A DNA stretch of 63,341 nucleotides, the filler included, from Folioceros fuciformis (lineage: Eukaryota), in NCBI GenBank assembly GCA_049999805.1. It is 14 parts of 14 records of this genome, joined end to end, with 100 filler letters (N's around TTAATTAATTAA, not from the genome) between each part and the next. Parts side by side here need not be neighbours in the genome. Positions count along the whole stretch, not along the records: positions 45,438 to 55,269 come from JBNGIO010002723.1; 13 more parts are not named here. One strand, 5' to 3'. Position numbers and translations under genes: made by a program. Of this stretch, positions 22,201 through 60,521 are shown piece by piece. How positions within the stretch are numbered: position 1 is the stretch's first letter; every line of letters starts with the position of its first letter. Below the pieces are notes generated by a model that worked only from the letters and a program-made list of their open reading frames with translations, was not told where the DNA came from and did not search any database.

Positions 22201-23529
22201 TAAACGTTCGGCGACGAGAAGAGAAGGCCGAGGTGGCCGAGTTCGAGAGCGAGAGAGTCGGAAAGTGTTGAGCCCTAAATGAGATAGGACGAGAGAACCA
22301 TGTGTGTCGAGCTTGAGAAGGAGAGGTGAAGAGTCAGAGTGGCCGGGTGTTGGGGTTGTGGTCCTGGAAGTGAAAGATGTGTCTAGACATGTGAGCGAGC
22401 TGTGATTGTGTGTTAGCGTCGGTATGATTAAGAGTGTGGGGGCAAGTTCGAGGCTGGTGAAGGACTAACTGTATGAGTGTCGGCTGAGTGGGGAAGTGAG
22501 TTGCACATGTTCTGTGGAGACGTGTGGTGTCAGGGAGTCTTTGAGAAAAGTGTGTGAATGAGAGTGGATTTGGGAATCGGTGCCGAGTGGTTGGCCATTG
22601 TTGGTGTGGCTTGAGTGAGAATGGGTATGGAGCCGAGTGCGACGTGAGATTGTCGCGACGTTGGAGCAACGAAGGTCGTTGAAGTGGCCGAAGGTAGTAA
22701 GTGGGTTGGATGAGTGACTCGGGTGCGACCAGGCTGTGGCTTAGTTCCTGATAAGAGTTTAGCCGGGATGTCACTGTGAGGTTGGAGCACATTCTTCGTG
22801 GTAGTTGGAAGATGTGGCGTTGATTGTGTGGGCGCGGCTGAGAGGAAGGCGTCCGGAGCCCGGAAGGTGGTGAGAAATGGAGATGACTACGTGCTGTGAG
22901 GAAATGCTTGAGGGTTGACGGCAGAGCGGTACCCCTTTGTCACTAGAGTGTGTGGAGAGGTGTAAGCCCGCATGAGAGAGAGGAACCCTGTGTGTATGAG
23001 TATGTGTGTATGCCTGACGGACCATGAATGAAGATGAAGGTCCCCGATATGAGGGTGAAGACCGGGAAAGAAATCGGAGGGAAGGTAAGTTTCTGGGTTA
23101 GAGAGAGAAATCGAAGAGAGAGAGAGAGAGGTAGTGGGCCCCACTGAGGTAGCCGAAAGGGCGACCATCGTAGGAGGACAACGGGGGTAGCCGAGCAGAG
23201 AGGTAGATGTGGAGGCGACGGGGTAGCCGGGGAACGGTAATTGGAGTAACCCTCACCCCAGTAGTCGAGTAGGCCTGTCAGGGAGTTCAAGGTCACGGTA
23301 GCTAAGGAGGCGACGGTGGTAGCCGAGTCGCGACAGGGTAGAGGTAGATGAATAGGGGGTAGACGAGCGGCAAGTGAGTAAGACTGACCCTGGGTAGTAA
23401 CTGACTTTGTGAGAAAGCCTGTGTTATTTAACACAAATGATTCCCTTGGGATTGAATCCCAGCGCTATAACGACAAAGAGGGTTTGTGTAGACCTCGCAG
23501 CACCCCCGGGTGCAATATTTTCCCCCACA
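22200..23529 (+). mobile_element. 3' part of an LTR (assigned to family B), ending ...CCCCACA, inserted in a LINE
   Basis: Purine-rich and homologous to the reverse complement of 53530-54480 (e.g. aacacaaat.attcccttgggat..aatcccag.gcta.aacgaca.agaggg). Shared terminus CCCCACA. Confidence 0.75.
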
Positions 23530-24470: not shown

Positions 24471-24570
24471 NNNNNNNNNNNNNNNNNNNNNNNNNNNNNN
24501 NNNNNNNNNNNNNNTTAATTAATTAANNNNNNNNNNNNNNNNNNNNNNNNNNNNNNNNNNNNNNNNNNNN

Positions 24571-33596: not shown

Positions 33597-33696
33597 NNNN
33601 NNNNNNNNNNNNNNNNNNNNNNNNNNNNNNNNNNNNNNNNTTAATTAATTAANNNNNNNNNNNNNNNNNNNNNNNNNNNNNNNNNNNNNNNNNNNN

Positions 33697-38863: not shown

Positions 38864-39699
38864 NNNNNNNNNNNNNNNNNNNNNNNNNNNNNNNNNNNNN
38901 NNNNNNNTTAATTAATTAANNNNNNNNNNNNNNNNNNNNNNNNNNNNNNNNNNNNNNNNNNNNGCCTCCTATGTGTAATAAACTAGCTCAAATTTGGTTT
39001 TGAAGCATTTAATCCTAAGGATTATTTTTAAAAAAATTTAAATTTATGTATATCATATAACAATAATTTTAAACCTTGTTTCTAGTATGTCATGTATTAG
39101 CTATCTCAGATGTCATATGATAGCAACTTTGAGTCAAACCCCACTGCAACATTTACTTAAATTTGTTCAGGAGGATGAGAACCTAAATTGGCCAAAGGCC
39201 GATAAGGGCCCAAGTTGTTCTTTCTGTTGGGAAGATTGTCTTTCAAGTTTTACTAACTATTAAGGTCCTATTTGTATTTTACTTGTTATCAGATATTTTA
39301 GAGGTCCTTAATTTTTTCAACATTAATTTTCAACGTGATTATCTTGAGTGAGTGAGCATACCTCTTTTCATAGATTCTCTTCTTTGAACAAGTGAAAAAG
39401 ATGTATAAAGTTGATAAGGTAAGTATAGGGAGTAGAAAACTTTTGTCATGAAGGTGTCCGCCGATTAGGTAAGAAACCCTCATCCAATGTTGTTTAGAAT
39501 AGAATAGCACACATATGTCTTAAGTAAACCAATGCTAGGATAAAAATGAACCTAGCTTAGCTAGATATTTTGCAAACTAGCTTAGAAATAGCTAGATGTT
39601 TCTAGGCAAGTTGAGTCGGAACACATGTTGGGTATTTCCCACCATGTTGGTGTAACCTTGCTGCCCAACATGGGAAAAAAAGCAAAACTTAGGGTACAG

Positions 39700-42600
39700 T
39701 AGCAAGGCATCATGGAAGGAGCAGCGCTAATGCAAGAGCGTGAAGCCAACTCAGCTGGACGCTATATCGTGAAGATGGCTGGTGCTAGGCAAAAGGGGCA
39801 GCCAAGGCAGAAGTTGGTAGTTGTTCAAGTTGTACCGAGCAGCGTTATAACTTGGGGAAGGCAGCTCAAACCTTATTTTTGTGTTCTCTGGAATTGAGAG
39901 CTAGGATGAAGAACGTTTTCAGTGCCTTTGATTCTTGTGTTGCAGTTCATGGCATAACTTACTGACTCACCAAGCTGCGTGTGTCACGCAACTCCTTTCA
40001 AACCCAGATTGCTGCAAGTCTTCGCTGCAATCTCTTCACTTCAACAACTTTTTCAATTTGGAACAAGCATGCAAGATGTGGGAGCAAATGAGCTGGGTGG
40101 AGGCGGCCACGCAACTATAGCAAGGCAGCATCGCCCACTCGCCCTAATCGTGCTAGCAGCAGTTCAACTCCAGCAAGCTTTCCCAAACCTTCCAGAGTTC
40201 ATAGCGTCCGTTACATAGATTGGTTGCTTTTAACTCACATACCAGATTCTTTGCCTCACTGAGACAAATCCATTGGTATGATTTTTGTTCAATTCAAAGT
40301 GAAATCTAGGGACTTAATGCCTTGGAGGAGTTGGTCACCTAAGGTTTCAATTGGGGAATGTTGGCTATTTGCAGCCAACACTCCTCTTGTTGTAGCATAC
40401 GGGCTAGGGCTCTTGTGGACATTTCAGGTCTTTCATTACATATAGCTTAGCTTTTAAACCAGCTCCCTACAAGTCTCTTTTTGCAGCTGTGACTTTGGCA
40501 TTTCACAGTTCTGGACTAGTTTGGTTTTCTAGCTTTAGCAGCAAGCTTGACTACAGTACTGGCTTGCCTTCTTTTCCTCTTCCAGCCTAGCTAGCTAACT
40601 TGTTGTTTGCTGTGCATGTTCATGGGGGAATGCAACCTAAGGAGCATGGGACCAGTCCTCGTTATAGACTGAGATCTCGTGACATCCTTGGACAAAGCAC
40701 CCCACCTAGACGTGCATACACACAACAGAGGAGGCAGCCAAGAGGCAAGAGCAAGCTCAGGAGTTTGTGGAAGTCAGCTTTAACCCCGACACTGCACCTT
40801 CAACAGCAAGGCCAGCAACCAGCTGGTCCCCATTTACAAGTTTCCTCATCTCTGAGCCTTCAACTTTGGAGGGAGAGCAGGCTCCATTTTAGAGCCAGCT
40901 ACCTGAGGAGGAGACATAGGGAGAGTTCTTGCTATAGCAGTCCTTGGGCCATACACCCTTGGAGCAGCCCCCCTTGCCAACTTGGGGTGGGCAGCCTTCA
41001 GTTCACTCAGGCCTTAGATTTCCTCATCCAGGACAACCATACATCAGCTAGTCACGTGTTGAGTATTCTGAAGACTCAGACGACATGGAGGGGGGAGCAA
41101 CTTACAGGCATGAGAGACTTTCAGGGAGGCCAAGTACACAGCCCCTACGGGACTTCAAGTTGTTTGTCAATGGCATGATCAGTCGGGTCAAGTTTAAACA
41201 TGGTGCTGCGTACAGCCACCTCTACATGTTTGAACAATTGGTTGGGTATCTAGCAAACGAGGCCCTAGACTTGTATGAGGTGCACCAAGCTGAGCTCACA
41301 GCAACGGTGGCTACACCTAACCCCTTGTTCTAGAATGCCTTGCAGCTGGCTTACAATGCTAAGCTAGCTAATGCAATTAATGCTCACCAGGCTGGTATTG
41401 CTGTTGGGAGCATTGCAGCCACAATGCAACCACCAACAGTGGTCAGCCTAACAACAGCAGAAATGATTGCAGCTACTGCAAGTGTGGATGCTGACATCCT
41501 CACACCCAAGCATGCTAACCCAGTGGAAGACATTTTGGGGATTTTGGAAAAGGCTTTTCCCCTCAAGACACCTGAGAAGATTGCAGAGTTGGCAAGTTTT
41601 GCGCACAAGAAAGAAATAACTGTTCAGATGACCTTCCGTCGACTACAAAAATTGCGAGAGGGTACAGGAATGCTAACAGACTAGGAGGCAGCACAAAAAT
41701 TCCTCACAGCTCTAGAAGGTGATCCACTTTTCCACTTGTAGCTCGTCACATCCCTTGTGGATAAGTATGGAGACAGTTATACTTTGGAGCAGGTGCATGA
41801 GGAGGCGGAGAAGAAGGAGATTGCATTCTCAGCATATGCCTCAAGGCATTCCAAGGCCTTCACGCATTATCAAACCATGTTCTCTAGAAAGAACATAGCT
41901 GCTGGGGCATCCTAGTCTACTTAAGCCAAGCCAGCCAAAGCAGGAGCTGCAGCAACCTTGGAGGCTTTGTGCAATCGCTGTGGCAGTCTAGAGCACATGG
42001 CTCCGGCCTGCAAGTGCCCTCCTAAAGGATTGCTTTGTTCTCATTGCCACAAGCCTGGACATCTTGTGACTGTATGCTTCCAGAAGCATCCGAAGCGAAG
42101 GCAACAGCGAGGGGGCACCACAAATGTTGCAGGGACAGCTCCCACTTCCACTGATTCAAGCCCTTTGGCTACAGGCAATTTAGGAGTCTCATGCAGCAAA
42201 CAGCAGCGAGAGAAGGCCAAGGCCAAGGTGGCTACTAATGCAGACAAGCTCACTTCACTGGAAGCAACCGTGGCTGCTCTTGCCACATAGGTGGGGGCAC
42301 TCTCAACTAGTATCTCTAGCAGCGTAGCTACTTCCAAGCCAGCTGGGACAGCCAGATTGGTGGCATCACCAATAGAGGATGATGAGGGCTATGGGCTACC
42401 GCATGAGGCCTGGAATGAGGCCCAGCGCTTGGAATATGCGCCGTTGTTTTCAGTTCAAGACATGGGCATCAATCCTGGGCAGTTGAGCTAGGCCTTGAGG
42501 AGTGGAGAATCAATAGCATTTGTCACAATGACAACTGGAACATCTGATAGTGAACTGGCTGTAGGTTTGCCAACAACCTCAGCCACATACATGTCATTTT

Positions 42601-45337
42601 CAGCAGTGGACAAGGCTCCACAATGGGACATGGGATCTATGCTAGGGGTATACACCTCTCAACGTGCCACGTCCATGCCAAGTTGCCCTTGTGTGCAGCC
42701 TACCAACCGCATGAAGGTGCGTGTCGACAATACCATGGTGGATAACCGAGAGGGGCATGTCACTGTCAACGGATATGCACCAAAGATGGTCCTTTTGGAT
42801 ATTGGGCGCAACCCATCATCATCTGCAAGGCTGCGACTAGGTGGAGATGCTCTCAAAGCATCACCGTGGAACATCAGGACAACATTTGGGTCAATTGAGC
42901 CTGTTTGTGGAGAGACTGTACAGCCAGTTACCATAACGTTGAAGCCCGGCACAGCCCCCTCCATGGCGCTTGCCTTGCATTGTCTAGTGACCACGGCCAC
43001 AAATTATGATGTGCTTCTTGGGCAGGAGTTCCTCTTTCCTCTAGGCATAGGCGCGGACAACTGGTCCGAGCTCGCCTACTAGAGGCCTGATTGGAGGAAC
43101 GGAGGTCAGCAGGTGGCCTACTTGCCTCTTGATCTCCATGGAGCCAGTAAGGTGGACACTGCCACGTTGATTGCTCCACTGGTGCTTGCATGCATCTTGA
43201 TTCTTGACACCAGGCAGGTAGACACTTGGCTGGATACCAATCTTGATGACGAGGATGGAATGATGGACCAGTCAAGATAGTCATTAGTAGCAACCTCATG
43301 CTTGAGGGATGTGTTGTTGAAAAATGACACGGGTGACCCATCTGTAGACGTTTTGCATGTGGCCACCCCACATGTGCAATTGGCCCTTTAAAGGATGTAG
43401 CCACCTCCTGCACCAGATGAGCAACCAACGCTCAGCGATGTCAATCAGCCCATCATAGCATGGACACCCTCTGCACCTAGCTTAACAGTTCTGGAACTGT
43501 TTGGGGGCCTATGCACTGGATTGGAAGCCATGCTGCAGAATGGGCTGGTTGTGGCCCAATACATTTATTGTGACAAGTGTCCCATAGCCAGGAAGCTAGC
43601 TGCCTTTTGAAATCAGGGACTTCAATCCCAATTTCCAGCATAGCTGCCACTCATTGCCATGGCTGCCATGTTTATAGCCCTTCCACAGGATGTCCAGTAC
43701 ATCCAGGTTGGGCACATTCAGCGCCTACCACCCATAGACATCGTAGTGGTTGGTTGGGAATGCCAAGGGTTTTCCTCAGCTGGCACTGGAGCAAGTTTGT
43801 AAGATACATGCTCTGCTCTTTTCTGGGATATGTGACGCATCTTTGTGTGGATTCAGGCCCGCAACCCTACCTGTGCTTACATTTTGGAGAACACTCCAGC
43901 CCAGCTGGATTCTCGACTACAGGTTCGACAGGACATGGCTGTGATCCAGCAGCATGTGGGAGTTCCTTTGTTACTTGATGTTGTACAGGTGGGCAGTTAC
44001 GCACATCGCTTGCATAATTTTTGGACCAACCTTGCGCCCCAACCCTTGTTAGAATTGGTGTTGGCTGGTACCACTCGAGACCCATCCTTGAGCCTGGTCA
44101 CAGTCCTCGACAGCAATCACCAGCCTCAGCCTGTCCGTGCTGCAAAGAGGAAGCCTTGGTACAACACCAATGTCCCAAAACAGCCACGCAGTACCCTTCC
44201 TACGTTGGTGAGCTATCCCAGCTCTCATGCATATAGAGGGCAGGGAGCTGGCATGTTGTTGAACACTGACACACAGCAGTGGGAGGAACCCAATGTGGAC
44301 GAACGGGAGCGAGTGATGGGTTTTCACACCCATTCTACAGCAGCACTGCAAGTCAAAGTTCAGCAGTGGTGCTCAGCCTTGGGCTGTGCTATGGAACTTC
44401 ACGCAGTGACATGGCTGGTCAGCATCTGCCTGGCATTTCAACTTATGTCTCGTACAGGTCCTCGCCAGGTCCCCCATTTCTCCCACACTTGTGCTGCAGA
44501 TGTTGTTCATCTCCCATTCCCTAGCTACACTACATGGTCATACTAGCTTGATGCTGGGGGGGGGAACATCTGGCCTGGGCTAAGAAGCCTGTTTTTTCAG
44601 CCTCAAGTCCAGGGGGGGACTGTGCATGGATTGCTGGAGCTGAGCACAAGCCACGTCCTTCCGCTGAGAACTTTCTCTGGACAATGGAACCCAAGCTCAC
44701 AAGCAAGCAGTAGGCTCAGGTTTGCAGTTTGTTGCTGAAATACAAGGATTGTTTCGCCTTCTCCATGAAGGAATTGAAACTTTGCAATGTGACTGTCTTC
44801 CGCATCAAGTTGACCAGTGATGAGCCCATCTATAGGCGATGTTACAGGCTCAGCCAAATAGAGTGGGAGATGGTGGACGCACGATGCCAGGAATTGCTGG
44901 AGGCTGGGCTTATCCGTCTCTCATTGTGCCAAAGGGGGTTATGCCACATCCAGCCAAGGTGGGTATACATCCAAAGTTTCAGCCGAATTGCAAAGCCACT
45001 GAATGATCTACTGCGCAAGGATGTGCAATGGAGTTGGACAGCTGCTGCAAAGGAGGCTTTTGACATGCTCAAGGCTTAGCTAACCGCGGCTCCCGTGATG
45101 GCCAGACCTGATTTTTCCAAGGCCTTTGTGGTGCACACAAATTGGAGTGTGCTGGGTCTTGGGGCTGTCCTCGCACAGCTAGATGAAGAGGGACGCGAGC
45201 GCGTCATAGCTTACGCCTCTCGCAGTAATAACCGTGCGGAGGCCAACTACAGCAGTTACCATGGGGAATGCTTAGCGGCCGTGTGGGCTGTTTGCCATTT
45301 CCGCCCATATCTGTTTGGGAAGCCCTTTACATTGGTG
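39700..45337 (+). mobile_element. DNMT-carrying Ty3/gypsy retrotransposon, copy 2 (gag-PR-DNMT-partial RT-RNase H)
   Basis: gag (from 41085), knuckles, protease (VLLDIG..YDVLLGQEFL) and DNMT share one frame. RT start KYKDCFAFSMKEL..EPIYRR.YRLS follows, with the RT core deleted, then FSRIAKPLNDLLRK and RNase H VHTNWS..GAVLAQ..IAYASRSNN.AE.NYSSY.GECLAAVWAV.HFRPYL. Left boundary approximate. Confidence 0.92.
43482..44430 (+). pseudogene. Full-length C5-cytosine DNA methyltransferase domain (DNMT3-like) with 4 in-frame stops
   Basis: LTVLELFGGLCTGLEAM (I), IDIVVVGWECQGFSSAG (IV), ILENT (VI), SYAHRLHNFWTNL (VIII, compare DNMT3 AAHRARYFWGNL), ERERVMGF..HST (IX), ALGCAM (X). Stops at 43608, 43641, 43800 and 43833; no frameshift. 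Confidence 0.92.
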
Positions 45338-45437
45338 NNNNNNNNNNNNNNNNNNNNNNNNNNNNNNNNNNNNNNNNNNNNTTAATTAATTAANNNNNNN
45401 NNNNNNNNNNNNNNNNNNNNNNNNNNNNNNNNNNNNN

Positions 45438-47770
45438 ACGAAAGGCGAAGGGTTGTGATGGGAGGAAGGGCCAATCTTTTTTGCTTGACTTGCGGTCAAC
45501 AGGGTCATTCGAGGGCAAGTTGCCCGCAAGTGAAGGTGCAAATTGTGGAATATGAAGAGGAGGGGGGGAAAGCTTACCTAGAGGATGCCTACCAAATTCA
45601 GGAAGCAATGCCTATGCTAGGATATCCCAAGACAGCTTACCACTCGCATTTGTGCAACAATGCGCTTGGGAGAGGCCAAGCCGTCAGGAACCCCGGACAG
45701 TTGACAACGATCCAGTGTTATCATTGTCGAGGAATAGGTCACTTTGCGAGCAACTGTTCTTCGACGACACGCGAAGGGAATGGGGACTATGAGAGGTTGT
45801 GTACTAACTACAAACAAATGGGGCATGTGGCTTGGAGCGTTCCATATGCTACCCCAAAGAAACATGTGAGGATTGCTTCCACACCAGCAGCTATGATCCG
45901 GCCTCGGGACCAAGTGCCCCACTCGTTGCACAAGTGACAGACGCATTAATGGCTGTATGGGAGGATGCAAAGGGACACATGCTAAGGGAATTGGAAGGCT
46001 TGGGCAGTCTGAACAAAAAATATTATGAAGAGACCCCTGCCATGGCCGTCCGAACTCGAGGGCGAGTAAAGGCAGTAAAGAGCAGCGATCAACCTGCGCA
46101 AGGGAAGCGAGGAGGAAGGGATAGGCCTGTTTCCTCCAATGCGGAGGACACCTCTGGAGATCAGGCCACCAAAGTGAGTGGTAAAGAGCAGATGTTGCCA
46201 ACCGTAAATATACCGGAGGAACTCCCGAGAAGTCCGGGAGAAAAGGAAACGAGAGGTAGCCGGTCTGAGGAGCTGGCGATGCGCGCTGGGGAGGCACGAC
46301 AATCCATGGGTGAGCCGAGCCAAGGGGCGGGGGCAGTAGAGGAGGCCCTGCGTCTGGACAAAAGGAGGGAGTTGGGGTTCCCCCCGGATGTTCGCTAGGA
46401 GGTGGCTGAAATGATTCGAGAAGAATTAGAACAAACCGCGGAAACCATGGCCGCAACGAGTGAGGGCCAATCCAAGCTCACGGCTGCAGGAAAGCAGGAT
46501 GAGCCGATGAACGCAAATTGCCGACTCATAGCATAGGTTCAGAAGGGGAGACCGCGAGTGCTGGATCTGGTAGAAGCCATCATGGATCAGAAATTCATGG
46601 TAACCTTCGGCCAATTGCTTAGGGATATGCCACGATATCGACAGTAGCTGTGGCAGCACTAAAGTTGGCACAACCTAAGAGGAAGCCGAGTCTACCAAGG
46701 GTGAGGCCGAGGTTCCATGCTGTAAATTTGGTGACAATGGCGGATCAGGGGCCAGCGGAGTTGCAAATCGAAATTGCGGGGGGTGTGATTAAAAAGGTAC
46801 CTCTCGACACAAGATTTGGAGTGAACATTATGATTGAAGACACAGCTCGGAAGCTGGGATTAGAAATTGAGCACATGGCCAAGGTTTTGCAGCTGGCAGA
46901 TATGTCGAAGATGGCGGCAATTGGAGAAATTCTCGGAGTTCTGACCCACATTGGCACCATCCCATACCTTATGGATTATGTGGTAATTAAGTAGAAGGCT
47001 CCGGGTTATGAGGTGGTGATTGGAAGGACTTAGATGTATGGTGCTCGGTGTACTTTTAGATGGGGGTGGAAGAAGGTAGGTGAAACTCCATATGAAACGG
47101 ATGGGTATACTTCAGCTGAGGATACAGAAGGGCAGGCAGATGAGGATGAGAGATTCCTGTTTGCACATATCTTCTGGTCGGAGGAGGAAAAGGATTTTCA
47201 GCGACAGCTGCCCCTGGTCAGTTGTTACAGGGTCATAGAGGCCGTAGAGGACATGGAGATGGAATTGGAGGAAGCCACTCCGACCACTCAGTAGTCCAAG
47301 GGGAACGCGAGGTAGCTCCAGGGGCTACCGAGGCAGTCGAACCAACAAAGGCTGAGGAGGAGGAATTGGGTGCGACGCGCCTAAGGGTCGGGAGGACGTC
47401 ACAAGGATAACCTCTAAGGAACTATTCCGCGAATGGGGAATGAGGGAGGCAGCACCTCGAAGGCCTGAAGAAGGGTTTGGCATCACCTCAACACCGGTAG
47501 AACGTGAATGGGTGCAAGCGGATGAGATTAAGGATGTGGAGGTCCTGCTAGGAAAAGACCAGATGGGAGACAACGCTTGTGGGTGACGGGGGAGAAAATG
47601 GAGCGGGTGCTGAAGGGACTGCACGAAGGGGAGGCCGGTGGCCATTTCGCTGCACACATCACCTGTAGGAAAATCTTGGAGGCAGGATACTGGTGGCCTG
47701 CAATGCACAAGGACACAGCCGAGTATGTCAAAAAATGTGACGCGTGCTAGCGGGTAGGGAAGCCCACCCC
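45438..47770 (+). mobile_element. gag-pol: Athila-like gypsy, internally deleted: gag (3 Zn knuckles), protease, then integrase HHCC
   Basis: CLTCGQQGHSRASC, CYHCRGIGHFASNC, CTNYKQMGH, VPLDTRFGVNIM. Jumps at ~47557 to PDGRQRLW..GHFAAHITCRKILEAGYWWP..CDAC. Confidence 0.88.
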
Positions 47771-47799
47771 TGGCGGCGGTGCAGGTGGGCTCCGCTGCA

Positions 47800-48111
47800 G
47801 GGAATCCCTCTCCTCCCTCCGTCGCCGATTACTGAGGATGAGGACCGGCTCTCGTTCACCCCACTGATGTGCCTCCTCCTCCGTCAGTTCCTCTAGGACT
47901 GCCTCGGAATAGCAATGAGGCAGCCCTCATACCCGCCAGGGTAGTAGTAGATGCCCCTGCAGGTCTTCAGTTGCAGGCCGTAGCCCCGCGTCCCTCCTGT
48001 GCCTATACGTACATACAAAAACAGCTTCAAAACTCGGGGTCCTTCCACATAGAGGCCTGGCACATAAGAGGCCTCCCCCTCATACTGCAGCATAACCTGA
48101 CCCTCTGTCAT
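47800..48111 (-). pseudogene. Small unknown ORF2 downstream of the accessory ORF
   Basis: MTEGQVMLQYE.EASYVPGLYVEGPRVLKLFLYVR..GGTRGY.LQL..GLPHCY.EAVLEELTE. Second copy at 54985-55269. Confidence 0.6.
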
Positions 48112-48122
48112 AAAGGAGGTGC

Positions 48123-50399
48123 TTACCCCATCCTCCCTTGTGCTACTTCGGGCTGCCTGTCCCCTGCTCTGCTGGGGTACAAGTTCTCCATCCCTCCAGC
48201 TGCTGCTGCGTCACCCAGCTCAATCCGCCTGGTGCGAGTCGCCCTCCTGAAATGCTTGGGCACAGGCGCCTCAACCCTCACTTCTTCGGGTACCGGGGTC
48301 GTGGCTTCAGCTACCGGCGTCGTCCCTCCTCCACCGGTAGCCCCTTCGGGTATCTCGGGCGTCACGAGACTACCGGTAGCTAGAGGGGCTACCGGTGTGG
48401 CCATTCGACTACCGGTAGCCCTGTCGACTACTGGCACTGTTGCTCGGCTACCGGTAGCCCTGTCGGCTACTGGCACTGTTGCTCGGCTACCGGTAGCCAT
48501 GTCGGCTACTGGCACTGTTGCTCGGCTATCGGTAGCCCTGTCGGCTACCGGTTCTGGAACTCGACTACCGATAGCCCCTTCGGCTACCGGCGTCGCCGTC
48601 CAGCTACTGCGCCCAGCCTTGCCCTTCCCTTTTATTCGCTCCTTGGCCTCATCCCGCTCCCGTTTGTAGTTGTCAACTAGCTTTTGGACTTGTTCCATCG
48701 CGGCCATCTCCTGCTCGTGAGCCTTAGCCATTTCCTGTTGCATTTCTAGGTTAGTCTCGCGGGCTTCCCTCACCTGAGCTAGGAGTGACCCTTGTTGTTC
48801 CTTCAGCGCATGGATCTCCGCCCTAGCCTAGCGCGCCTCTTCCTCTACTTGTGCCTTATCCTCGCTCAGGGTCTGCTACTTCTTTTCCAGGAGCCGTCAT
48901 GCTGTCTCAGACTCCGCCAGCTGCCTCCAGTCTTTGGCCTCCTTCCCTCTCGCCTCTGCCTCCTTGCTCCAGGCCTCAACCTCTCTTTCCGCCTGCATGC
49001 TCAGCCAGGTCAGAGCCTTGGCTGCCTGGTCCAGCAAGTCTGCTTGTGCCTGTACCATGGTTGAGGTTAGTTCCGGCAGATCCACCTCCTGTGACTCCCC
49101 AGGAGCCATTCCCCTCTTGGTTATTTGCCTCCCCTGTAGTGCTTGCAACTTCTCCAGCTCCCCTACCTGCAGCCTATCCACTTCTCGGATTTTTCTAAAA
49201 ACCTCTTCCCATTCTGGGAAGTTTTTCTGCTCCAAAACGAGCCCTAATTCACCCATAACCTCAGGAGGAGCCACTTCCATTTCTGGCACTTGCTCCTGAG
49301 GTGCTTCCGGCTCCACCTCGTGGGGTTCCTGCTCCGCTAGCTCTTGGTATGTTGGCTCTTGGTCGGCTTCTTGTTCCTCCTCAGCCCGTTCCAGGGCTAC
49401 CTCATGTAACGGCGACCCACTTCCTTTCCTGACAATCTGACCACTGGCCCATCTCCTCTTGGCGGGAGCCTTCTTCCCGGGCCCTGCCTTCCTCTTTTGC
49501 TTGGCGGGGGTCCTCTCCTCCAAACTATCCGCACCGCCCGACTCTAAGCTGCTGGAGTCGGCTCTTGCTGGTTCGGCGGGCTTCCACTTCACATCCCTTA
49601 TCGACCTCCACATTTGCAACGAGGCTAGCACTTCCAGTTCAGTCACTAGGTTAGCATTACAGTAGATGTGAATTAGAAAGGGAGAAATCATCGAGGGCCG
49701 GGGAGAGGACAAAGTTAGATTCTGCCTCTCCTCGTCCATCCTGGCGTACAGGATTTTCCCCCAGCCTACCTTGCTCCCCTTGACTACCTTGTGCACAAAC
49801 ATGAGCATCTAGTCGGACAGATAATCCTACTTGCGAACCTGCAGGAAATACAGGAACCACCTGGCCAAACCCATCAGCTGAGGGTTGGCCATGTCGCAAA
49901 CCAGCCACCCGTTGGTGCTAGGTTTGAGTAGCTCCTTGACGTCTGCTGTGCCACCTCGTTTCTTCAAAGACTCCAGCACCAGTCCTCCCTCCTCTTGTTG
50001 ATCGCGGCCATACACTCGCCTTACCAGCTCCAAGTTCCACCCCTGGGGTCTGCCGCAGATTCCCTCTTCTTGGACGGGCTCTCTCATCGTTAGGGTTCAC
50101 TCCCTGACAAGCTGCGGCGCCGCATGGTTCCACCTCTGGGTCATGAACCTGAGGCCTAGTTCTCCGACTAGTCCTCCGGCTCTAACCCTCCAGTGCTCCA
50201 TATTGGGCCATAGGAGAACATTGATCTTTGGTACTAGGGATTCTCCTTCTTGCTTAGGAACCGTTACTCCTGCAGCAACTCTGGTCGCGACTTCATCCTG
50301 CCTGATTCTTCCCCGTACTCCGAACCCTGCTGCCCTCTTGCGCCTGTGGTCGCCAGGCTCTCCGCCCGTTCTGCTACACCGCCTAGGCTTCCACTCCAC
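48123..50399 (-). pseudogene. ~750-aa accessory ORF1 (conserved N-terminal domain, acidic linker, coiled coil, 13-aa repeats)
   Basis: One frame from 50087 to 48123 with internal stops, plus a frameshifted N-terminus. N-terminal domain highly similar to 61013-61838. ATGSRATVPVADR repeats (39 bp) at ~48370-48590. Confidence 0.8.
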
Positions 50400-50927
50400 C
50401 CCCGACCGTTGTCGCGCTTTGCGGCTACTCCTACTCCAGCTCCAACCTGCGGACGCCCCTGCCTCGATTGCTGCCCAGTTTCCCCCCTGTCTCTCTCTAG
50501 GGTTTTATACTACCGGTCCCATTCCACTATTGCTGGTTGGTCTACCGCCGGTTCCCCTTCCACGACGGTCGCCCAATCGGCTACCGTCGCCCATTCATCA
50601 CACTCCGGTTTTCCACCTAAGTCCACAACTACCTAGGCCCGTACCCCATTTCCTATTTCTTATTTTCCAGGGGGGGGTTACATATATACCTGAGTGCACC
50701 TGAGTGCCCCCGAACCACCAAGGGCCAAGGACACACTCGCCCACACTTCTCCTTGGTCTTGTCACTTAATCCTATCAAACCACTAAGGACCGAGGAGCCT
50801 TTTGGGTATAAATACCCAAGTATTATTTCCATACTAAGCTGATCCACTTGCATCTACACAAAAAAACACTACGTGTTCATTCTGCTCTTCAAAATGGGAG
50901 TCCCAAAAGTTTTTTTTCCTCTACATA

Positions 50928-50938
50928 CTCCCCTTCTC
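50928..50938 (-). promoter_or_regulatory. Polypurine tract GAGAAGGGGAG
   Basis: Lies between the integrase C-terminus and TA-TGTAGAGG. Confidence 0.8.
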
Positions 50939-50984: not shown

Positions 50985-53145
50985 TCAAACATTAACCTTG
51001 GTTGGCAGGGACTGTCCATCCATTTGCTCCAGCTGAATGGAGCCATTGTCAAAAACTTCGGTTACCTTGTAGGGCCCCATCCACCTCAGATGCAACTTCC
51101 CTGGGAAGTGCATATACCTCTTGTCATACAACAAGGCCAAATCTCTAGGTATCACCCACTCCTGCTTCCTCAACCTTCGGTCATGCCATGCCTTCCTCTT
51201 GGCTTGCATCTCCTGCATCGCCTCCAATGCTTGCTCCCTATCCTCAGTGTGCCTCACGAAACTGACCAAGCGCTCCAGCTGACTCTCTTCCACTGACATT
51301 CAGTTTTCTCTTTGGATGCGCAGGGTTGGAACTTTGAACTCCACAGGCATCACCGGGTGATGCCCATAAGTGAGGTAGTAGGGCATCTTTTGAGTGGTAA
51401 TCCTCTCTGCGGTCCTATACGCACACAGTGCTGAGTGGAGTTTGAGATCCCAGTCATACGCATACTCTACCATCAATTTGTTCAGTATCCAGCAGAGCAG
51501 CCCGTTTGCTTTCTCTGTCAGCCCATTCGCCTTCGGGTTATAAGGGGTAGTCCGCCGGTGTTGTACTTTGAAGTGCTCTACCAGGTGAGTGATAACTTCG
51601 TTGACAAAGTGCGTTCCCCTGTCACTCACTAGCTCCAGTGGATAGCCATAGCAGGCGATCACCTGCTCAAACAGGAACTTTGCTACCACATGGGCGGTAT
51701 CTACCTGGAGTGACTGCGCTTCCACCATTCGTGTGCAGTAGTGCGTCGCGACCAGAATGTACTGATTTTGTCGAACTCAGGTTTTTGGCTGGATCGGCCC
51801 CACAAAGTTGATTCCCCATTTTTCGAATAGAGCCAAGGCCAGGATCGGTACTAGGGGCCACTGTGTTGTCGGGGTTGGCTTCCCAACTCGCTGACACGTG
51901 TCGCACCTTTTGACAAACTCAGCCGTGTCTCTGTACATGGTCGGCCACCAGTAGCCTGCTTCCAGCATTTTCCTACAGCTGATATGAGCAGCAAAATGGC
52001 CTCATGCCTCTCCATCGTGCAACCCGTTTAGGACTCTCTCGACCTTCTCCCCGGTCACCCAAAGTCGCTGCCTCCCATCTGGTCCCATTCGATACAACTT
52101 GCCCCCATTGCGAGTGAATGGCCTAGCATAGTGCACGAAGGCCTGCACCTGCTGGCTCGACAAGTCAACGGGAACGACTCCCGTCTCCAGGAATTCTGCT
52201 ACCTCATGGTAGGTGGGTTTGATGAACTTGCCCCTCCCCTTCTCATCTCCTGTTGCACCCTCATCTTCCCATCCTCTACGGTTAGGCACAGCCGCTTCGC
52301 CCTCCATCTCTACTGCGAACAAAGTTTCATCAGGAAACTCATCCTCCTGATCCTGGGCTAGTCTCCACTGTGAAGGTAAACTCTTGCAGCAACAAGATCC
52401 ACCTGGCTATTCTTCCCGACAAGTCTACCTTGTTCACCAGATGCTTCAGTGCAAAGTGATCCACATGGAAAACGAATTCGTAAGATAACAAGTAGTGTTG
52501 GAACTTTCTGACCGAGTACACCATTCCCAGCGCCTCTCTCTCCATGGTGGTGTACTTCCGTTCTGCCTCGGTGAGTTGTCGTCCAATGTAGTAAATTGGA
52601 TAGTCCCTTCTCTTCTCATCTCGCTGGCTGAGTACCACTCCAATCGCAAAGGCAGAGACATTGACGTACATATGAAACTTTTTATTCCAGTCAGGCCCCT
52701 TGAGCGTCTTAGCTGTGATAAGTGTCGTCCGCAGATCCTGGAAGGCATCCTCCCTTGATACCGTCCATTCCCACTCTTCGTCCTTCCTTAGTAGTCTGGT
52801 CAAGGGGGCAGCTCTCTTGGCAAAGTTTTTAATAAACCTTCGATAGTACCCCACCATGCCCAAGAATCCCCTCAACTCCTTCAATGTCGTCGGCGGTTTG
52901 AGGGCTGCAATGATTTTCACTTTGTCCGGATCAACCTCAATCCCTCTTCCTGAGACCCTATGCCCCAGCAAAATGCCTTCAGTCATCCCAAAGTAACACT
53001 TCTTCGGATGCAGACACAGCTTGGCCTCCCTACACCTTTCCAAGCATTTCCTCAGATGTTGTAGATGATCCTCCTATGTCTCGAATACACAAAAGTCGTA
53101 TAGGAAAACTTCCATGAAGTCTCGGAGGAAGTCTTTAAAAATTTG
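50985..53145 (-). pseudogene. pol: Athila-like (non-chromovirus) gypsy pol: RT C-half, RNase H, integrase
   Basis: FMEVFLYDF (mutated YxDD), KKCYFGMTEGILLGHRVS, GYYRRFIKNF, YTTMEREALGMVY, YWWPTMYRD..CDTCQ, FEKWGINFVGP, LVSDRGTHF, PKANGLTE, GKLHLRWMGPY. Confidence 0.95.
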
Positions 53146-53529
53146 AGGGATATAGGGATTGAGAGCGAAGACCATGTTGCCTACACTTCCTACCTTGGTT
53201 GATCCTACCAATTCTGATAGCAGCTTAAAAATAAAGCTTGCATTTAGGGAAACGAAAAGTAGTTGGAAGCTTTGTAAGCAGAAGAAGGAGCGATCATTCA
53301 TGGAGCGTGTAGTTGCTGGAACAGACACACCTGAAGCATGGAGCGTGTAGCTGCTGAAATAGACACACCTAGAGCATAGTTTCTGTTAGATGTGGCATTG
53401 GTATATCGTACTAAGTAGTTTTCATTATTGCTTGCTGGAATCATAAATGTGTGTACATATACCATTTTGAGATTATATGGATGGGCAAAACGATGCTTCC
53501 ACTTTAAGCCATAAATTTTGCATGGGTAT

Positions 53530-55269
53530 TGTGGGGTTAAAATATGGTACCTGGGGGTACCGCAAGGTCCATACAAGCCCTCTATGTCGTTGTAGCTCTG
53601 GGATTGGATCCCAAGGGAATGATTTGTGTTAAACTACACAGGTTAGCTTCTAAAGTCAATTAACACCTAAAGCTCGACTGACCCACACACACACGGCCAA
53701 TGCTCGGACCTTACCAAGCCCCCTTACTTCTCCCACCAGACGACCCCTCGACCACCCAGTTGCCCCAGGGACTACCTCGCCCTGGACTACTCTTGGTTGC
53801 CCACCGGGCTACCCTCCGTTCCCCAATGGACTACTACCGTCGCCCTCTGGACTACCTCCGTCGCCTGACGGTCTACCACTCGTGGGTCCCACTCTCTCTC
53901 TCTCTAGGGTTTTCTCTCCCTAGGGTTTCGTCTCTCCCTCTGGGTCGTTCCTACCCGACTGATTACGTCCTGCCCGCGCATACCCTTTTACGTTTCCCTT
54001 CCTTGGTTCAGCACAAAACCGCCTCACTCACCTCAAGAACAAGCGCACGCACACATGAACAGCAGCAATTTGTTGGACGCCTTCCACCCGCGTGATCTCA
54101 CACCTTAGATACACCCCCTGCGGTCTCAATTCAGCTTCTTTACAGCCTCTCCAGTCTCATCACGACCAGACACACATACACACCACGTCTTGTTGCACCC
54201 CACACACATTACGCACCTCGCTTGCAGGGTTTCCCCGGCTTTGTTCTGTCTTACCCCACTCACCAGTTCTCTGTATACATTCTGCCGTCTTAACAGTCGT
54301 CGAATCACTTCCACTCCGCTTCACTTCCTTCTTCCACTCCTTCTGGCGTCCTTTTCGCATTCGCTCTTACTCACTACTCGGCCACTCCCTCCTCCTCCTT
54401 CTCACACACGCGCACTCTCGCGCTCTCCTTTCTTCGGTTCTTCAGTCTTCTTTCTCAGCAATGCCCCTCCTTGGCTTCTATTAACGTTGAGGAATGGTGA
54501 GGTACTGGGGCTAAGGGAAGAGGAGTCCCTTCCACTCCGAACTCGCGGATTCGGCTTCGGCACCCGCACCACCCCACGTGACCACCTCGAGGATAGCTGG
54601 GGAGCTTCTCTCCCACTCGGCGAGGCTCCTCCTCCCGATTCGTCCCCGAACCTGATCACGGAGGGCCCACCACCTACACCCGCACCCCAGGTTGCTATGT
54701 GCGCTCGCTTGCCTGGACCTCCTGTCCAGCAACGGCCATCGCTAGGTCCCTGCAAGGTCGACTGTTCAGCTGGTTCTAGCTGATTTCTTAGGCCTTCAAA
54801 CCGGCCTCTTGTACACGGTGATGGCGGTTTTTTCTGCCATAAAGTTTATCAGGCAGGGGAGCTGTGCTCTTAAATTCTGAGCGACTTAGGTCCAAATAAA
54901 GCACGCTAAAAAAATCCTATTCTAGCCTGCATTTACTATCGCCCTTTGCCACGCCGCTGGCGGCTTCTTCCTGGCCTTCGTGCGTCACCCCTCGCTGCTC
55001 CTTCTCTGGTTGCTGAGGACAGCCACAGGCCCCCGTTCTACCCAGCGCTGGGCCTCCTGTTCCGTTAGTTCCTCCAGAACTGCCTCCACATAGCAGTGGG
55101 GCAGTCCTGTCACCCACCAGCTGTAGTGGTAGAGTCCCAGGCGCGTCCTCAACTGCAGGTCGTAGCCCCGCGTCCCTCCTATGCTCATACGTACATACAG
55201 AAACAGCTTCAGAACCCTGGCCCCTTTTACATACAGGCCTGGCACATAGGAGCCTCCTCCTCATACTGC
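53530..55269 (-). mobile_element. 3' part of LTR family B, including ORF2, ending ...CCCCACA
   Basis: ORF2 copy at 54985-55269 links it to 47800-48111. Distal ~1 kb is homologous to 22200-23529. No primer-binding site (PBS) after the CA, so a 3' or solo LTR. Confidence 0.72.
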
Positions 55270-55369
55270 NNNNNNNNNNNNNNNNNNNNNNNNNNNNNNN
55301 NNNNNNNNNNNNNTTAATTAATTAANNNNNNNNNNNNNNNNNNNNNNNNNNNNNNNNNNNNNNNNNNNN

Positions 55370-58283
55370 GGAACTCCTTTTAATGACTTGTATCTCTTGG
55401 ATGTCAGGACTCTTTCCCAAGCACCCACAGCTCAGGACAGCCAGTCTCCATCACTATCTCCCACTCAGTTGTGGCATTGTCGTTTGGGACACGTCAACTT
55501 TCAGCGTTTGTCTTTGTTGGTGAATAACACAGTCTTTAGAGATTCCCTGTCGTTCTCATTTGATAACCATGCTTTTTGCGATTCCTGTCAAGTTAGCAAA
55601 GCCATTTCCCAGCCATTTAGAGATCAGAACTTATCCAGAGCACCTGGTCTTCTCCACATAGTTCATAGTGACCTTTGTGGCCCCATGTCCACAGCCTCCT
55701 TTGGGGGTGCCCAATATTTCCTGACCTTCACTGACGAGTGGAGCAGATACTGTACAGTATATGTGCTGCATAGCAAAATGACACTTTCACCTGTTTCCAA
55801 GATTTCGTCACTATGGCTCAACGACAGACAGGCTGCAAACTCAGGATTTTGAGGTCAGACAATGGTGGAGAATACATTAGTCATGCCTTTTCAGACTTTT
55901 GTGCAACAGAGGGAGTTCTTCATCAGTTTACAGTACCATATACACCTGCCCAGAATGCGTTTGCTGAACGCAAAAAATGTACTTTACAAGAGGCCACTCT
56001 TTCTAGTTTGTCTTTTGCTGGACTGACTCGTGGCTACTGGGCAGAAGCTCTCGTTGCAGCTACTTATGTGCAGAATCATCTCCCTACCAAAGAACTTGGG
56101 CTCATTACACCATATGAACGTTGGACAGGCAAGAAGCCACGCATCACTCACTTGCAGATTTTTGGCAGCCCTGCATATGCCTTTGTACCTTCTCAGCTAA
56201 GACGTAAGCTCGACCCAAAGGCTGTTCGTCGAATCTTTGTTGGCTATGCTGAGGAAGTGAAGGGTTACAAGCTGTTTGATCCCAGTACTCGGCAAGTTAC
56301 TTATTCACGCAGTGTGATTTTCCATGAGAATGCTTTACTTCGTCGACATGACAGCTTGTTATAACCTTCTTCTGTGTTGCCTCCTGCCACTATCCATGGT
56401 GTTGATGACGACGCTGATTTTGCTGATGGTAAGGACACTGATGTTGTTGTTTTTGATTTTGAGGATACAACTCCTTCAGCTTCATGGGGGCACATCAACC
56501 AACCAGCATCACCTCAGCCATCACAGTCTGTGTCATCTTCTTTTGAATCAGATGAGTCTACTTTACCTGCTGAGTTTGCTCCTGTTGATGAATCTGTAGC
56601 AGTTGATCCTCTAGTGCCTCCTGATTTACCTTTAGTTGCAGCCCCTGATCCTCCTTCTGTCGAAGACACACCATCCTCACCTGTCCTTCGCAGGTCTACC
56701 AAGTCTAGACCCCCTCGCCATGAGTGGACAAAACCACCATTTGTTGCTGGTGTAGCTTCCAAAACTCATGTTCCAAACTTTAACACTTATGAGCCAACTA
56801 GTTACCTTGAAGCCATCACAGGCCCTGAGGTAGAATTCTGGAAGGAGTCCATACAGTGTGAATACAACTCTTTAATGGAAAATGGTACTTGGAAACTCGT
56901 AGACTTACCAGAAGGTCGTAAACCAGTAGCTTGTAAATGGGTTTTTAAAAAGAAACTCAACACAGATGGCAGTGTTGGCCGCTACAAATCTAGGTTAGTA
57001 GCTAAAGGATATAGCCAAGTTGCTGGGTTAGACTATAATGAGACATTTGCGCGTGTGGTGAAGTCTACTTCAGTCAAAATATTGCTATCTCTAGCAGCCC
57101 ATTTTGGTCTTCGCGTTCACCAACTAGACGTTTAGACAACATTTCTTATTGGTACATTAGAAGAAGAGATTTACATGCATCAGCCTGAAGGTTTTGTTAT
57201 AGACGAGGAGAAAGTTTGCCTATTGCTCAAGACACTTTATGGCCTGAAACAATCCAGCCGAGCTTGGAATGAAACGTCTCATTCTCTGCTGATAGAATTG
57301 GATTTTACCTGCTTGGATGTTGATAGTACTGTCTACATATTATGGGATGGAGATGACTTTCTTATTATATCCGTTTATGTGGACGACAACTTCCTTTTCA
57401 GTACTTCCTTGGCGTTGATGGCCAGAATCAAAAGTGTTCTTTTATCTCGTTTTGACATGACCGACCTTGGGCAACTTTGTTTTTCTCTTGGTGTTCAGTT
57501 CCAATTTTCTCAAGATAGGCATACAGTTGAGTTGCATCAGGAGCACTTTGTCACTCAGCTACTTCAGAAGTTCAACATGGCTGAGGCACGCCCTGTGTCA
57601 ACACCTATGTCAACAAGTGAGAAGCTATCCAAGGAACACTGCCCAACTACACAAGAAGAGAAGGACTTGATGGCCACTCGCCCATACAGGCAGGCAGTTG
57701 GTAGTCTTCTATATCTAGCATCTTGGACAAGGATGGATATATCCAGGGCTGTAAGCAATGTTTCTCAATTTTTAGAGAACCCGGGAGAGGTGCACTGGGC
57801 AGCAGTTAAGAGAATATTCCGTTATCTTAAGGGAACTCCTCGTTTAGGCCTGAAGTATACCAAGCAGGCTACTGGATTGGAGCTAGTTGGATTTTGCGAT
57901 GCGGATTGGGCTGGTGATCCGGATTCAAGAAGGAGCATAGTAGCTTATTGTAACCTGTTGGGTGGCTCAGTGGTATCCTAGTTGAGCAAGAAGGTTACGA
58001 CCATTTGTCTATCATCCACTGAAGTTGAGTATGGAGCACTGTCTCAAGCTGCCCGTGAAGTCATTTGGTTACGTTCCTTTCTATGTGGTCTTCAACAGTT
58101 GCCAGCTAGAGCTACAAGGTTGTGGTGTGGCAACCAATTGGCTATAGCACTCACGAAAAACCCGATTTTTCACACCCGCTCCAAGCATATCGAGATCACA
58201 CATCACTTCATTAGACAAGCTTATGACAAAGGAGAGGTAGATGTTCGATATATTCCAACAGGTGAGAATGTTGCTGATGTCCT
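55370..58283 (+). mobile_element. pol: Ty1/copia pol pseudogene (pre-integrase, IN, RT, RNase H)
   Basis: LWHCRLGH, IVHSDLCGP, RSDNGGEY, YKSRLVAKGYSQ, YGLKQSSRAWN, VYVDD, GFCDADWAGD, HTRSKHIEITHHFIR. Stops at 56362, 57133 and 57979. Confidence 0.96.
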
Positions 58284-59863: not shown

Positions 59864-60521
59864 CTACTTGAGGTAGGAAGTCTTTTGGCTTCGGACTTGG
59901 TGGGGGTGGAGCACTCTGGATAGGAATCCTCCGTCATGTCGTAGACATCGCCTGGATAGTGCGTCACTTAGGCGGGGGTGCTGGAGCTGATGGAGTGTCC
60001 ACCTTCCTTTTGGAGGAGGGGAGTTGGGTGCCAACGCCATAGAAGGAGATGCTGGAGCAGCTTTGCCGCTATCCTCCGACGGGTCCGATATAGGCAGTGG
60101 GACTGGTGTGGTGGGAAGAGCCTTGGGCTGTGCCGCAGGCGTGGTCATCTTCTTCCGAGGAGCAAATGCCGAGGCGGGGGCTAAAGTAGTCGGGGCTGGT
60201 GGTAGCCTAGCGAGGGCCGTCCTTTCCAAATCCGTCAAGACCTTGTAGTGGTCCCAGATATGGAAAAGAAAGGGTGCCAGCCTGGAAGGCGGGGGCTTCT
60301 CCTTCCTGAGCTTGCGAACATCAAACTGAATCCGATGGGCTACCACTTTCCCCCAATCCACCGGTGTGCCTTTTGCCAGTTCGTAGAGAAGCAGAAACAC
60401 CCCATCAACTATATGGTCCGTTTTGGTGACCAATAGCCAGTTGACTATCAGGCGTGCCACTTCTCGGATGCAAGGGTCCTTCAAGTCATGGATCAACCAC
60501 CTTTTGGTGGTCTTGGCGGAG
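59864..60521 (-). pseudogene. Gypsy accessory ORF homolog (third subfamily), cut by an LTR-B-like insertion
   Basis: RWLIHDLKDP.IREVARL..LLYELAKGTPVDWGKVVA..SRLAPFLFHIW..VLTDLE. Confidence 0.75.

Follow-up and report, generated by a model that had tools for sequence, protein, structure and literature searches.

A selected protein gene within a putative giant LTR of a decayed Ty3/gypsy element in Folioceros fuciformis

The window, that is the whole stretch of 63,341 nucleotides of Folioceros fuciformis DNA analysed here, consists of 14 unlinked contigs of 1.4-10 kb joined by 100-bp linkers (44 N, TTAATTAATTAA, 44 N), and because these contigs are separate, every stitching of LTR pieces described below is made across unlinked copies. 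The sample comprises copy 1 at 50925-47771 (minus strand), copy 2 at 60522-61858 (plus strand) and copy 3 at 21901-21855 (minus strand). Contig 12 holds four pieces of the family in mixed orientations, which may be misassembled, together with an inverted integrase fragment, a truncated reverse transcriptase (RT) and an unrelated AT-rich stretch of 340 bp. A tblastn search of the whole window with the two reading frames ORF1 and ORF2 returned no copies beyond those reported here, and when the window was compared with itself, the gypsy elements in 33697-45337 matched neither of these frames nor the LTR pieces. The GC-rich contig at 1900-8615, considered as a relative, was ruled out as unrelated low-complexity DNA.

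Copy 1 is preceded by a decayed pol remnant (50985..53190, minus strand), in which profile matches recover the C-terminal half of RT, RNase H and integrase, namely RT_RNaseH (PF17917/PF17919) at 53073-52339, Integrase_H2C2 (PF17921) at 52001-51777 and rve (PF00665) at 51776-51300. The integrase has a zinc finger, a core and a GPY/F-type C-terminus, with no chromodomain match. This remnant is 5'-truncated near 53190, carries four in-frame stops in 755 codons as well as one frame change near 52400, and ends in a TGA stop at 50987-50985. A polypurine-tract-like run of 10 purines, AGAAGGGGAG (50928..50937, minus strand), stands 47 nt past the pol stop and is followed by TA and then, 2 nt on and 59 nt past the same stop, by TG at 50925. 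An earlier note on this DNA had placed a purine tract and a TG at the end of the integrase; the TG holds at 50925, while the limits of the tract are 50937-50928 and not 50928-50938. The tract lies directly before the putative 3' LTR, as it would in an LTR element, and may have been used as a primer. Runs of at least 10 purines ending 0-3 nt upstream are found at 225 of 9819 positions on the same strand of the contig (2.3%), and sites that combine a purine run with TG are common on the purine-rich strand: pol holds 5 of them in 2148 nt, the putative LTR 11 in 3155 nt and the stretch downstream of ORF2 13 in 1456 nt.

The putative LTR of copy 1 opens with a conserved 5' terminal block (50696..50925, minus strand) that begins with TGTAGAGG, followed by an A run, and that is about 68-78% identical to copy 2 despite saturated synonymous sites. 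Copy 2 itself starts with TGTGAACG and an A run, and includes an ATG at 61013 and the first ~282 codons of ORF1; its similarity stops at about 61858, and copia-homologous sequence that matches contig 5 is present from 62398. Copy 3 retains the first 47 nt of the start, after which the contig ends. Recurrence of the TG boundary at 21901 and, in related form, at 60522 had been proposed from inspection of the sequence and was confirmed by alignment to copy 1, with identity in 46 of 48 columns (~96%) for copy 3 and in 31, 28, 27, 27, 23 and 27 per 40 columns over the first six blocks for copy 2. The three starts are set behind pol and a purine run, behind a cut paralogous gene and behind the plus-strand body of another element, respectively. 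The cut gene is an ORF1-like paralogue (59867..60520, minus strand; 28% identity) whose N-terminal part is missing and which is interrupted exactly at the 60522 junction. The 150-nt stretches that precede the three starts showed no homology to one another: in local alignment, 129, 182 and 23 shuffles out of 200 scored at least as well. Of the 9 nt directly upstream of TG, 8 are common to copy 2 and the copy at 21901, an agreement that counts against the LTR reading given below. At the sequence level, the assignment of TG as an LTR start is supported by three independent junctions.

ORF1 (48123..50296, minus strand) spans about 724 codons and is recognized by its single frame and its dN/dS, which between copies 1 and 2 amounts to 0.08 over 271 codons, compared with 1.0 and 1.3 in shifted-frame controls. 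The differences between these copies at the three codon positions number 64, 56 and 131, and synonymous sites are saturated (pS 0.72). By this pattern of substitution ORF1 is a real gene under selection. In copy 1 the gene has six in-frame stops in 717 codons, a decay similar to that of pol, and its frame shifts once, no more than about 10 codons from the ATG that is homologous to the start in copy 2; thus, the ORF of ~750 aa described previously stands as a selected gene of about 724 codons, but not as an open frame. The part retained in copy 2 contains four in-frame stops, one of them in its first 242 codons. A start of ORF1 ~525 bp inside the LTR, as first given, had to be revised, the ATG at 50296 being 629 nt inside and the stop-to-stop frame opening 421 nt inside, whereas the ~490 bp given for copy 2 agrees with the position of its ATG, 491 nt inside. 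Some 210 nt before the ATG of ORF1, TATAAAA is followed by the telo-box-like motif AAACCCTAGAGAGAG (50490..50510, minus strand), and a counterpart in copy 2 begins at 60862, 150 nt before the ATG. We infer from these motifs that the block is the promoter of ORF1; the order of start, TATA block and ORF1 is kept in both copies.

In the ORF1 protein an all-alpha domain occupies the N-terminal part; the protein also holds a basic patch resembling an NLS, an acidic stretch, a helical region rich in charged residues, and tandem repeats of 13 residues. The C-terminal part of the gene (48405..48591, minus strand) carries a 39-bp tandem repeat of 4.8 copies, rich in CGGTAGCC. Searches for distant homologues returned 23 at E <= 1e-3 (best 5.8e-10), and those inspected have the N-domain, the acidic region and a coiled-coil-like region in common. 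Pfam searches with pieces of ORF1, ORF2 and the plus-strand frames of the region matched no family, a word-indexed protein search with ORF1 residues 1-290 gave no match among proteins of 394-1257 residues, and the ORF1 family profile returned from proteins of this same size range only P0022, which was already known. The AlphaFold2 model (pLDDT 83, pTM 0.80) had no fold match at E <= 0.001 either in the PDB (best 0.8) or in the viral library BFVD (best 0.41), and the N-terminal all-alpha domain, as modelled, is new. In the ESM Atlas the clusters nearest to ORF1 are streptophyte hypothetical proteins, and one cluster carries DUF1985 (score 0.89), which is a lead only. For Transposase_32 (PF20167), three window sequences were without a match even at E <= 1, while 2 of 24 aligned family members matched the core of the N-domain below the 45-bit cut-off (best E 1.2e-4); this sub-threshold match to the curated profile is the only tie of ORF1 to the Athila-type extra ORFs. 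No transmembrane-type segment was found on a simple scale, in place of a dedicated predictor (best 19-residue Kyte-Doolittle mean 1.17), and for this reason ORF1 is not considered env-like; its product is soluble and probably nuclear. We regard ORF1 as an accessory factor that the element itself encodes, comparable to those of Athila, Tat and Grande elements.

Downstream of ORF1 lies ORF2 (47810..48120, minus strand), of about 95 codons, which is kept in 55260-54988, where about 70% of the amino acids agree once a 1-nt indel is bridged. The putative LTR of copy 1 breaks off in a zone at 47771..47816, next to the inverted integrase fragment, of which 47557-47770 matches 52084-51871 and which has a PF17921 match on 47532-47750 (plus strand). 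The tie through ORF2 to 53530-55269, which the earlier note had drawn, is borne out by 77% identity between 47817-48088 and 54998-55269. This second piece (53530..55269, minus strand) is the 3' part of a related copy and starts at a contig end; ORF2 is followed in it by 1.45 kb of purine-rich non-coding DNA and a conserved terminal module that ends, as had also been observed, in ...CCCCACA at 53530. A related 3' end module (23100..23529, plus strand) reaches ...CCCCACA at 23529 and adjoins a LINE reverse-transcriptase zinc-binding domain (PF13966 on 23492-23944). Both ...CCCCACA ends adjoin unrelated DNA, and no primer-binding site follows the CA at either 53530 or 23529. The plus-strand copy on contig 7 has only the last ~420 bp in common with 53950-53530 and, at a distance of 1.25 kb from the CA end, contains a gag-protease-linker-like ORF.

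The most economical reading of this arrangement, with a probability of roughly 0.6, is that ORF1 lies inside an LTR, because it would be located downstream of the plus-strand primer site. In these terms, a decayed land-plant Ty3/gypsy element outside the chromoviruses would have left, at 50925-47771 (minus strand), the first three-quarters of its 3' LTR counted from the 5' end, and the LTR family would carry the protein gene ORF1 and then the short ORF2. The plus-strand primer site would be situated 47 nt past the pol stop and not downstream of the accessory genes, and the sequence from TG 50925 to ...CCCCACA would be copied to both cDNA ends as LTR, so that the extra ORF usually placed between pol and the 3' LTR would become LTR-borne. 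R-U5 would lie in the conserved last ~420 bp, and each LTR, solo LTRs included, could be its own transcription unit because the TATA/telo-box-like block stands 150-210 nt upstream of the ORF1 ATG. The family displays the TG start, CA end and short inverted termini (TGT...ACA) of an LTR, with start and end in different copies; no copy has both on one contig, and the length of ~4.6 kb is stitched from copies 70-77% alike (77% over 272 bp at the join). A complete element, an LTR pair, a 5' LTR with a primer-binding site and a target-site duplication are all absent from the window, and the duplication of ORF1 in each element is therefore a prediction. Of the gene in a giant LTR that the earlier note had put forward, the part that stands is a selected ORF colinear with a supported LTR start, while the duplication, the solo LTRs that would hold the gene, the 4.5-kb length and the name 'Athila-like' are proposals; such a name would draw on the non-chromodomain integrase end and on the sub-threshold Transposase_32 matches in 2 of 24 members. 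Nor would a giant LTR be attributed to every relative, given that the contig 7 copy speaks only for the last ~420 bp. The full proposal, in which the primer site has moved directly behind pol and a ~720-codon gene with its own promoter resides with a small ORF in a ~4.6-kb LTR, twice per element and once per solo LTR, has in our estimate somewhat better than an even chance of being correct.

Several other arrangements have to be weighed against an LTR-borne ORF1. In a canonical layout ORF1 and ORF2 would be ordinary sense-oriented extra ORFs occupying a long internal region that separates pol from the 3' LTR, the arrangement of Athila or Retand, with the true primer site and an LTR of ~0.85-1.4 kb downstream of ORF2, and the tract at 50937-50928 would then be a second, upstream site of plus-strand priming, or the TG boundary a recurrent aberrant cDNA end. 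This agrees with the internal position of every plant extra ORF described in the available portions of PMC7264820 and PMC11963269, and with the sub-threshold occurrence of Transposase_32 in 2 of 24 family members, this domain being linked to an Athila 3' extra ORF in the accessible text of PMC11728184. It also agrees with a 19-purine run plus TG from 54403, about 850 bp from the CA end, with a similar purine motif after an internal-type ORF in contig 7 (from 22315), and with the fact that the two end pieces are alike only over the last ~420 bp. However, such a layout leaves unexplained why two more copies start at the exact same nucleotide behind unrelated DNA, its downstream candidate primer site has no weight because the 1456 nt concerned hold 13 sites of this kind, and the upstream tract, if it primes plus strands, yields a long LTR anyway; we regard it as unlikely.

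Less probable again is that a TG...CA unit of another family or another mobile kind came to lie behind pol by nested insertion or by a chimeric join, as might be imagined in a window of short contigs (1.4-10 kb) and linkers, where nested insertions are frequent (copia at ~62398, LINE at 23530) and where the inverted integrase fragment and the truncated RT of contig 12 occur together with 340 bp of unrelated AT-rich DNA. Against this, an insertion 59 nt past the pol stop and 2 nt past a purine run is improbable (2.3% for the run alone), pol and ORF1 have similar stop densities, and the three upstream sequences are alike over at most 4-9 nt at the junction, a length that makes a k-mer misjoin unlikely. 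A small element with its own short LTRs was ruled out, the start and end pieces having only 27-44-nt motifs in common. Very little credence is given to a short LTR that ends before ORF1 (under 500-630 bp), in which ORF1 would be a 5' extra ORF or a gag-like first gene and the order pol-LTR-ORF1 would stem from a tandem array with one LTR or from short-read LTR collapse. Collapse of LTRs is a common assembly artefact, and the TATA block 340-420 nt inside the start would suit an ordinary U3, but no CA-(0-5 nt)-TGG site is kept between copies 1 and 2, and copy 2 is devoid of TGG from offset 301 to its ATG (offset 492). Moreover, the 130-bp ...CCCCACA module is missing from both copies over their first 700 nt, where its best local matches are motifs of 44 and 27 nt, and what comes after ORF2 is 1.45 kb of non-coding DNA and the element end, not gag-pol. 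The earlier note had named, as an objection to its own proposal, a short LTR whose closing CA would precede the ORF; comparison of TGG sites and end modules revealed no sign of one, and this arrangement was rejected for want of a conserved CA-TGG site and of the end module near the start.

If ORF1 is indeed LTR-borne, the gene would be present at double dose per element and would outlive the element in solo LTRs after recombinational loss, and the LTR would act as a self-contained, self-spreading gene cassette, a plant counterpart of the U3-encoded genes of retroviruses. LTR finders run at their default maximum LTR length would miss or misannotate such an LTR. It would also open a way to study what a widespread but uncharacterised family of plant proteins does, one with 23 distant homologues, no Pfam family and no known fold.

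With regard to known systems, MMTV sag and HIV nef are retroviral genes located in or overlapping U3. As proposed for ORF1, their coding sequence lies 3' of the polypurine tract and is reverse-transcribed into both LTRs; unlike ORF1, to which they are non-homologous, they belong to vertebrate retroviruses, have smaller ORFs of about 200-320 codons and are not known to have a separate TATA block of this kind. Ogre elements, compared by description only, are likewise non-chromovirus gypsy elements of plants and would resemble the present family in combining LTRs that reach several kb with a supplementary gene. Their extra ORF1, however, sits within the internal region, ahead of gag. Full-text literature searches turned up no plant LTR with an ORF inside it, and the consulted sections of PMC7264820 place the extra ORFs of plant LTR retrotransposons in the internal region. 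The Tat-type elements Grande, RIRE2 and Retand, compared with ORF1 by description only, likewise have an extra gene 3' of pol, which according to the same sections is antisense and in the internal region. For the Grande gene, its own promoter and a nuclear product are indicated by the title of a reference cited in PMC11963269, as far as that source was available, and the TATA block upstream of ORF1 recalls such a promoter. Athila-type sense extra ORFs resemble ORF1 in being downstream of pol and in sense orientation, and a basic NLS-like patch, as in ORF1, is reported for the sunflower Athila extra ORF in the accessible text of PMC11728184. PF20167, said to be related to ATHILA ORF-1 (PF03078), gives sub-threshold matches in the homologous region of two members of the ORF1 family. 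Unlike the case of the Athila-type genes, no ORF1 sequence in the window reaches a Pfam threshold, and the primer-site-like tract and the common element boundary are upstream of the gene.

The sequence that begins with TG at 50925 (minus strand) on contig 12 (45438-55269), here called copy 1, was found again at 60522 (plus strand; copy 2) on contig 14 (58384-63341) and at 21901 (minus strand) on contig 7 (21855-24470), as the earlier note had claimed. Of 48 aligned columns, 46 are identical between the 21901 copy and copy 1, after which the contig of the former ends; copy 2 shows 58-78% identity to copy 1 (23-31 of 40 columns) across the first six 40-column blocks. The 150 nt preceding each start show no homology to one another, their best local scores being matched by 129, 182 and 23 of 200 shuffles. 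On the minus strand of contig 12 a 5'-truncated pol runs from about 53190, comprising the C-terminal half of RT, RNase H (PF17917, PF17919) and the integrase zinc finger (PF17921) and core (PF00665), with no chromodomain match at the integrase C-terminus. Its TGA stop (50987-50985) is followed after 47 nt by the purine tract AGAAGGGGAG (50937-50928), then TA and the TG at 50925, so that the boundary lies 59 nt downstream of the stop; of the 9819 minus-strand positions of the contig, 225 (2.3%) have a purine run of at least 10 nt that ends 0-3 nt upstream. At 60522 the start cuts an opposite-strand, 28%-identical paralogue of ORF1, the putative accessory gene of this gypsy-type element (59867-60520, minus), whose N-terminal part is lost there, and at 21901 it adjoins the body of a plus-strand element. 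With one copy behind pol and a putative primer site and the others at insertion junctions, these starts have the pattern typical of the 5' end of an LTR. Just upstream of TG, 8 of 9 nt are common to copy 2 and the 21901 copy, and GGAG to all three, which could mean that insertion favours certain targets or that the boundary is set slightly off.

Two pieces end in ...ATATTTT(AA/CC)CCCCACA, at 53530 (minus; piece 55269-53530) and at 23529 (plus). They are alignable across ~420 bp, with ~80% identity over the last 130 bp and a global alignment score of 205 (at most 26 in shuffles), and the termini of the putative LTR read TGT...ACA. Because a TGG-type primer-binding site is absent directly behind both CA ends, both are 3' or solo ends; a LINE zf-RVT domain (PF13966) lies downstream of 23529, and ~340 bp of unrelated AT-rich filler (53190-53529, minus) separates 53530 from the truncated RT. 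The filler contains a 38-bp tandem repeat at 53299-53377. No further element end was found between 50925 and 47771, and at 47771-47816 copy 1 breaks off and adjoins part of a related element's integrase in inverted orientation; the gag zinc knuckles and protease of that element are found at 45438-47000 (plus). The sole link between copy 1 and a CA end is ORF2 (~95 codons, directly behind ORF1 in copy 1, minus), which, as previously proposed, matches 55260-54988 at ~70% protein identity. The suggested ~4.5 kb LTR would measure ~4.6 kb when stitched from 3109 nt of copy 1 and 1468 nt of a 77%-identical copy. The same gypsy family is represented by three copies of its gag-protease linker, at 22013-22282 (+), 46215-46435 (+) and 21411-21754 (-); the one on contig 7 lies only ~1.25 kb from the ...CCCCACA end, which implies either that much of the interior was deleted or that this relative has a shorter LTR.

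The 14 contigs (1.4-10 kb) are joined by thirteen 100-bp linkers, each 44 N + TTAATTAATTAA + 44 N with stops in all six frames (1800-1899, 8616-8715, 13655-13754, 16150-16249, 20243-20342, 21755-21854, 24471-24570, 27239-27338, 33597-33696, 38864-38963, 45338-45437, 55270-55369 and 58284-58383); as the joining is artificial, order and adjacency across linkers are meaningless and linker-spanning features are not true neighbours. The contigs carry copia gag, integrase and RT, gypsy protease and integrase, and a LINE RT zinc-binding domain, as is usual for land-plant genomes rich in repeats, and the only apparent host-type gene seen is a RING-H2 zinc-finger ORF (32492-33085, minus; PF13639, E 7.5e-13). 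Ty1/copia elements (gag, integrase, RT) occupy 16494-20242, 55370-58283, 62398-63341 and 28300-30200; the one at 62398-63341 shares 88% identity with 16494-17419, and the ORF1 similarity of copy 2 stops at ~61858, about 540 bp before that element. A sequence of ~130-400 bp recurs at 91-98% identity (1900-2031, 15748-16149, 24571-24657, 34226-34636), in three cases right where a contig ends, and may be a young repeat where the assembly breaks.

The ~750-aa ORF noted in copy 1 exists as a long frame (50504-48123, minus) that is not open: 6 of the 717 codons in the main frame are stops, and the ATG homologous to the copy 2 start (50296) is one frame off, indicating a frameshift within ~10 codons of the ORF1 start, so that ORF1 of copy 1 is a pseudogene. 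Judged by its substitution pattern, ORF1 is a gene that was selected in its lineage: copies 1 and 2 give a dN/dS of 0.08 over 271 codons (pN 0.18, pS 0.72), against 1.0 and 1.3 in the two shifted frames, and their differences number 64, 56 and 131 by codon position. A promoter-like block, TATAAAA then AAACCCTAGAGAG, precedes the ATG by 210 nt in copy 1 and 150 nt in copy 2. The order of start, TATA block and ORF1 and the 5' terminal ~230 nt are kept although synonymous sites between these copies are saturated, which points to an arrangement that is old and under selection. The motif CGGTAGCC is present 14 times where shuffles predict 0.8 (including 48335-48589, 50579-50586 and 60784-60791), mostly inside a 39-bp coding tandem repeat (4.8 copies) in the C-terminal part of ORF1, with one copy ahead of each TATA block, while the final 400 bp before the CA ends are filled with related GGTAG(C/T)C units.

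A profile of the three ORF1 copies in the window retrieved 23 proteins at E <= 1e-3 from 1.84 billion representatives (best 5.8e-10, none with E <1e-10), and the nearest ESM Atlas clusters are from streptophytes. The 12 homologues inspected have 200-709 residues, and those of at least 560 share the same build of N-domain, acidic stretch and coiled-coil-like region. The N-domain is predicted to be all-alpha with a confident fold (pLDDT 83, pTM 0.80), the model having no structural match in PDB or BFVD, and no membrane-type segment was found in ORF1. The 28%-identical paralogue implies that the genome holds diverged subfamilies of the gene. No Pfam family reaches cut-off for the ORF1 family; Transposase_32 gives a sub-threshold match in 2 of 24 members, within the homologous core, and is linked in PMC11728184 to an Athila 3' extra ORF and to ATHILA ORF-1.

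That ORF1 lies inside the LTR is given a probability of roughly 60%, since a short LTR fails, a canonical layout leaves the boundary unexplained and a chance neighbour is unlikely. A short LTR ending in CA before the ORF, named in the earlier note as the contrary case, was looked for in copies 1 and 2 and not found: no CA-TGG site is conserved between them, in copy 2 TGG does not occur between offset 301 and the ATG (offset 492), neither copy has the terminal module within its first 700 nt, and behind ORF2 lie 1.45 kb of non-coding DNA and the element end, not gag-pol. The canonical layout, with the ORFs internal and ORF2 upstream of the true primer site, would agree with the abundance of candidate primer sites downstream of ORF2 (13 in 1456 nt) and with the plant extra ORFs described in PMC7264820, all internal, but appears doubtful because it does not account for the three-fold exact boundary. 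A chance neighbour or chimeric contig is unlikely, given where the boundary lies and that pol and ORF1 have decayed to a similar degree.

In the main texts of the full-text literature searched, no plant LTR-borne ORF was found. If confirmed, the location of ORF1 within the LTR would constitute a new structural arrangement within a known element type and give an uncharacterised plant protein family its first context. The LTRs of Ogre elements are very long, reaching several kb, and retroviral parallels to an LTR-borne gene are offered by MMTV sag and HIV nef.
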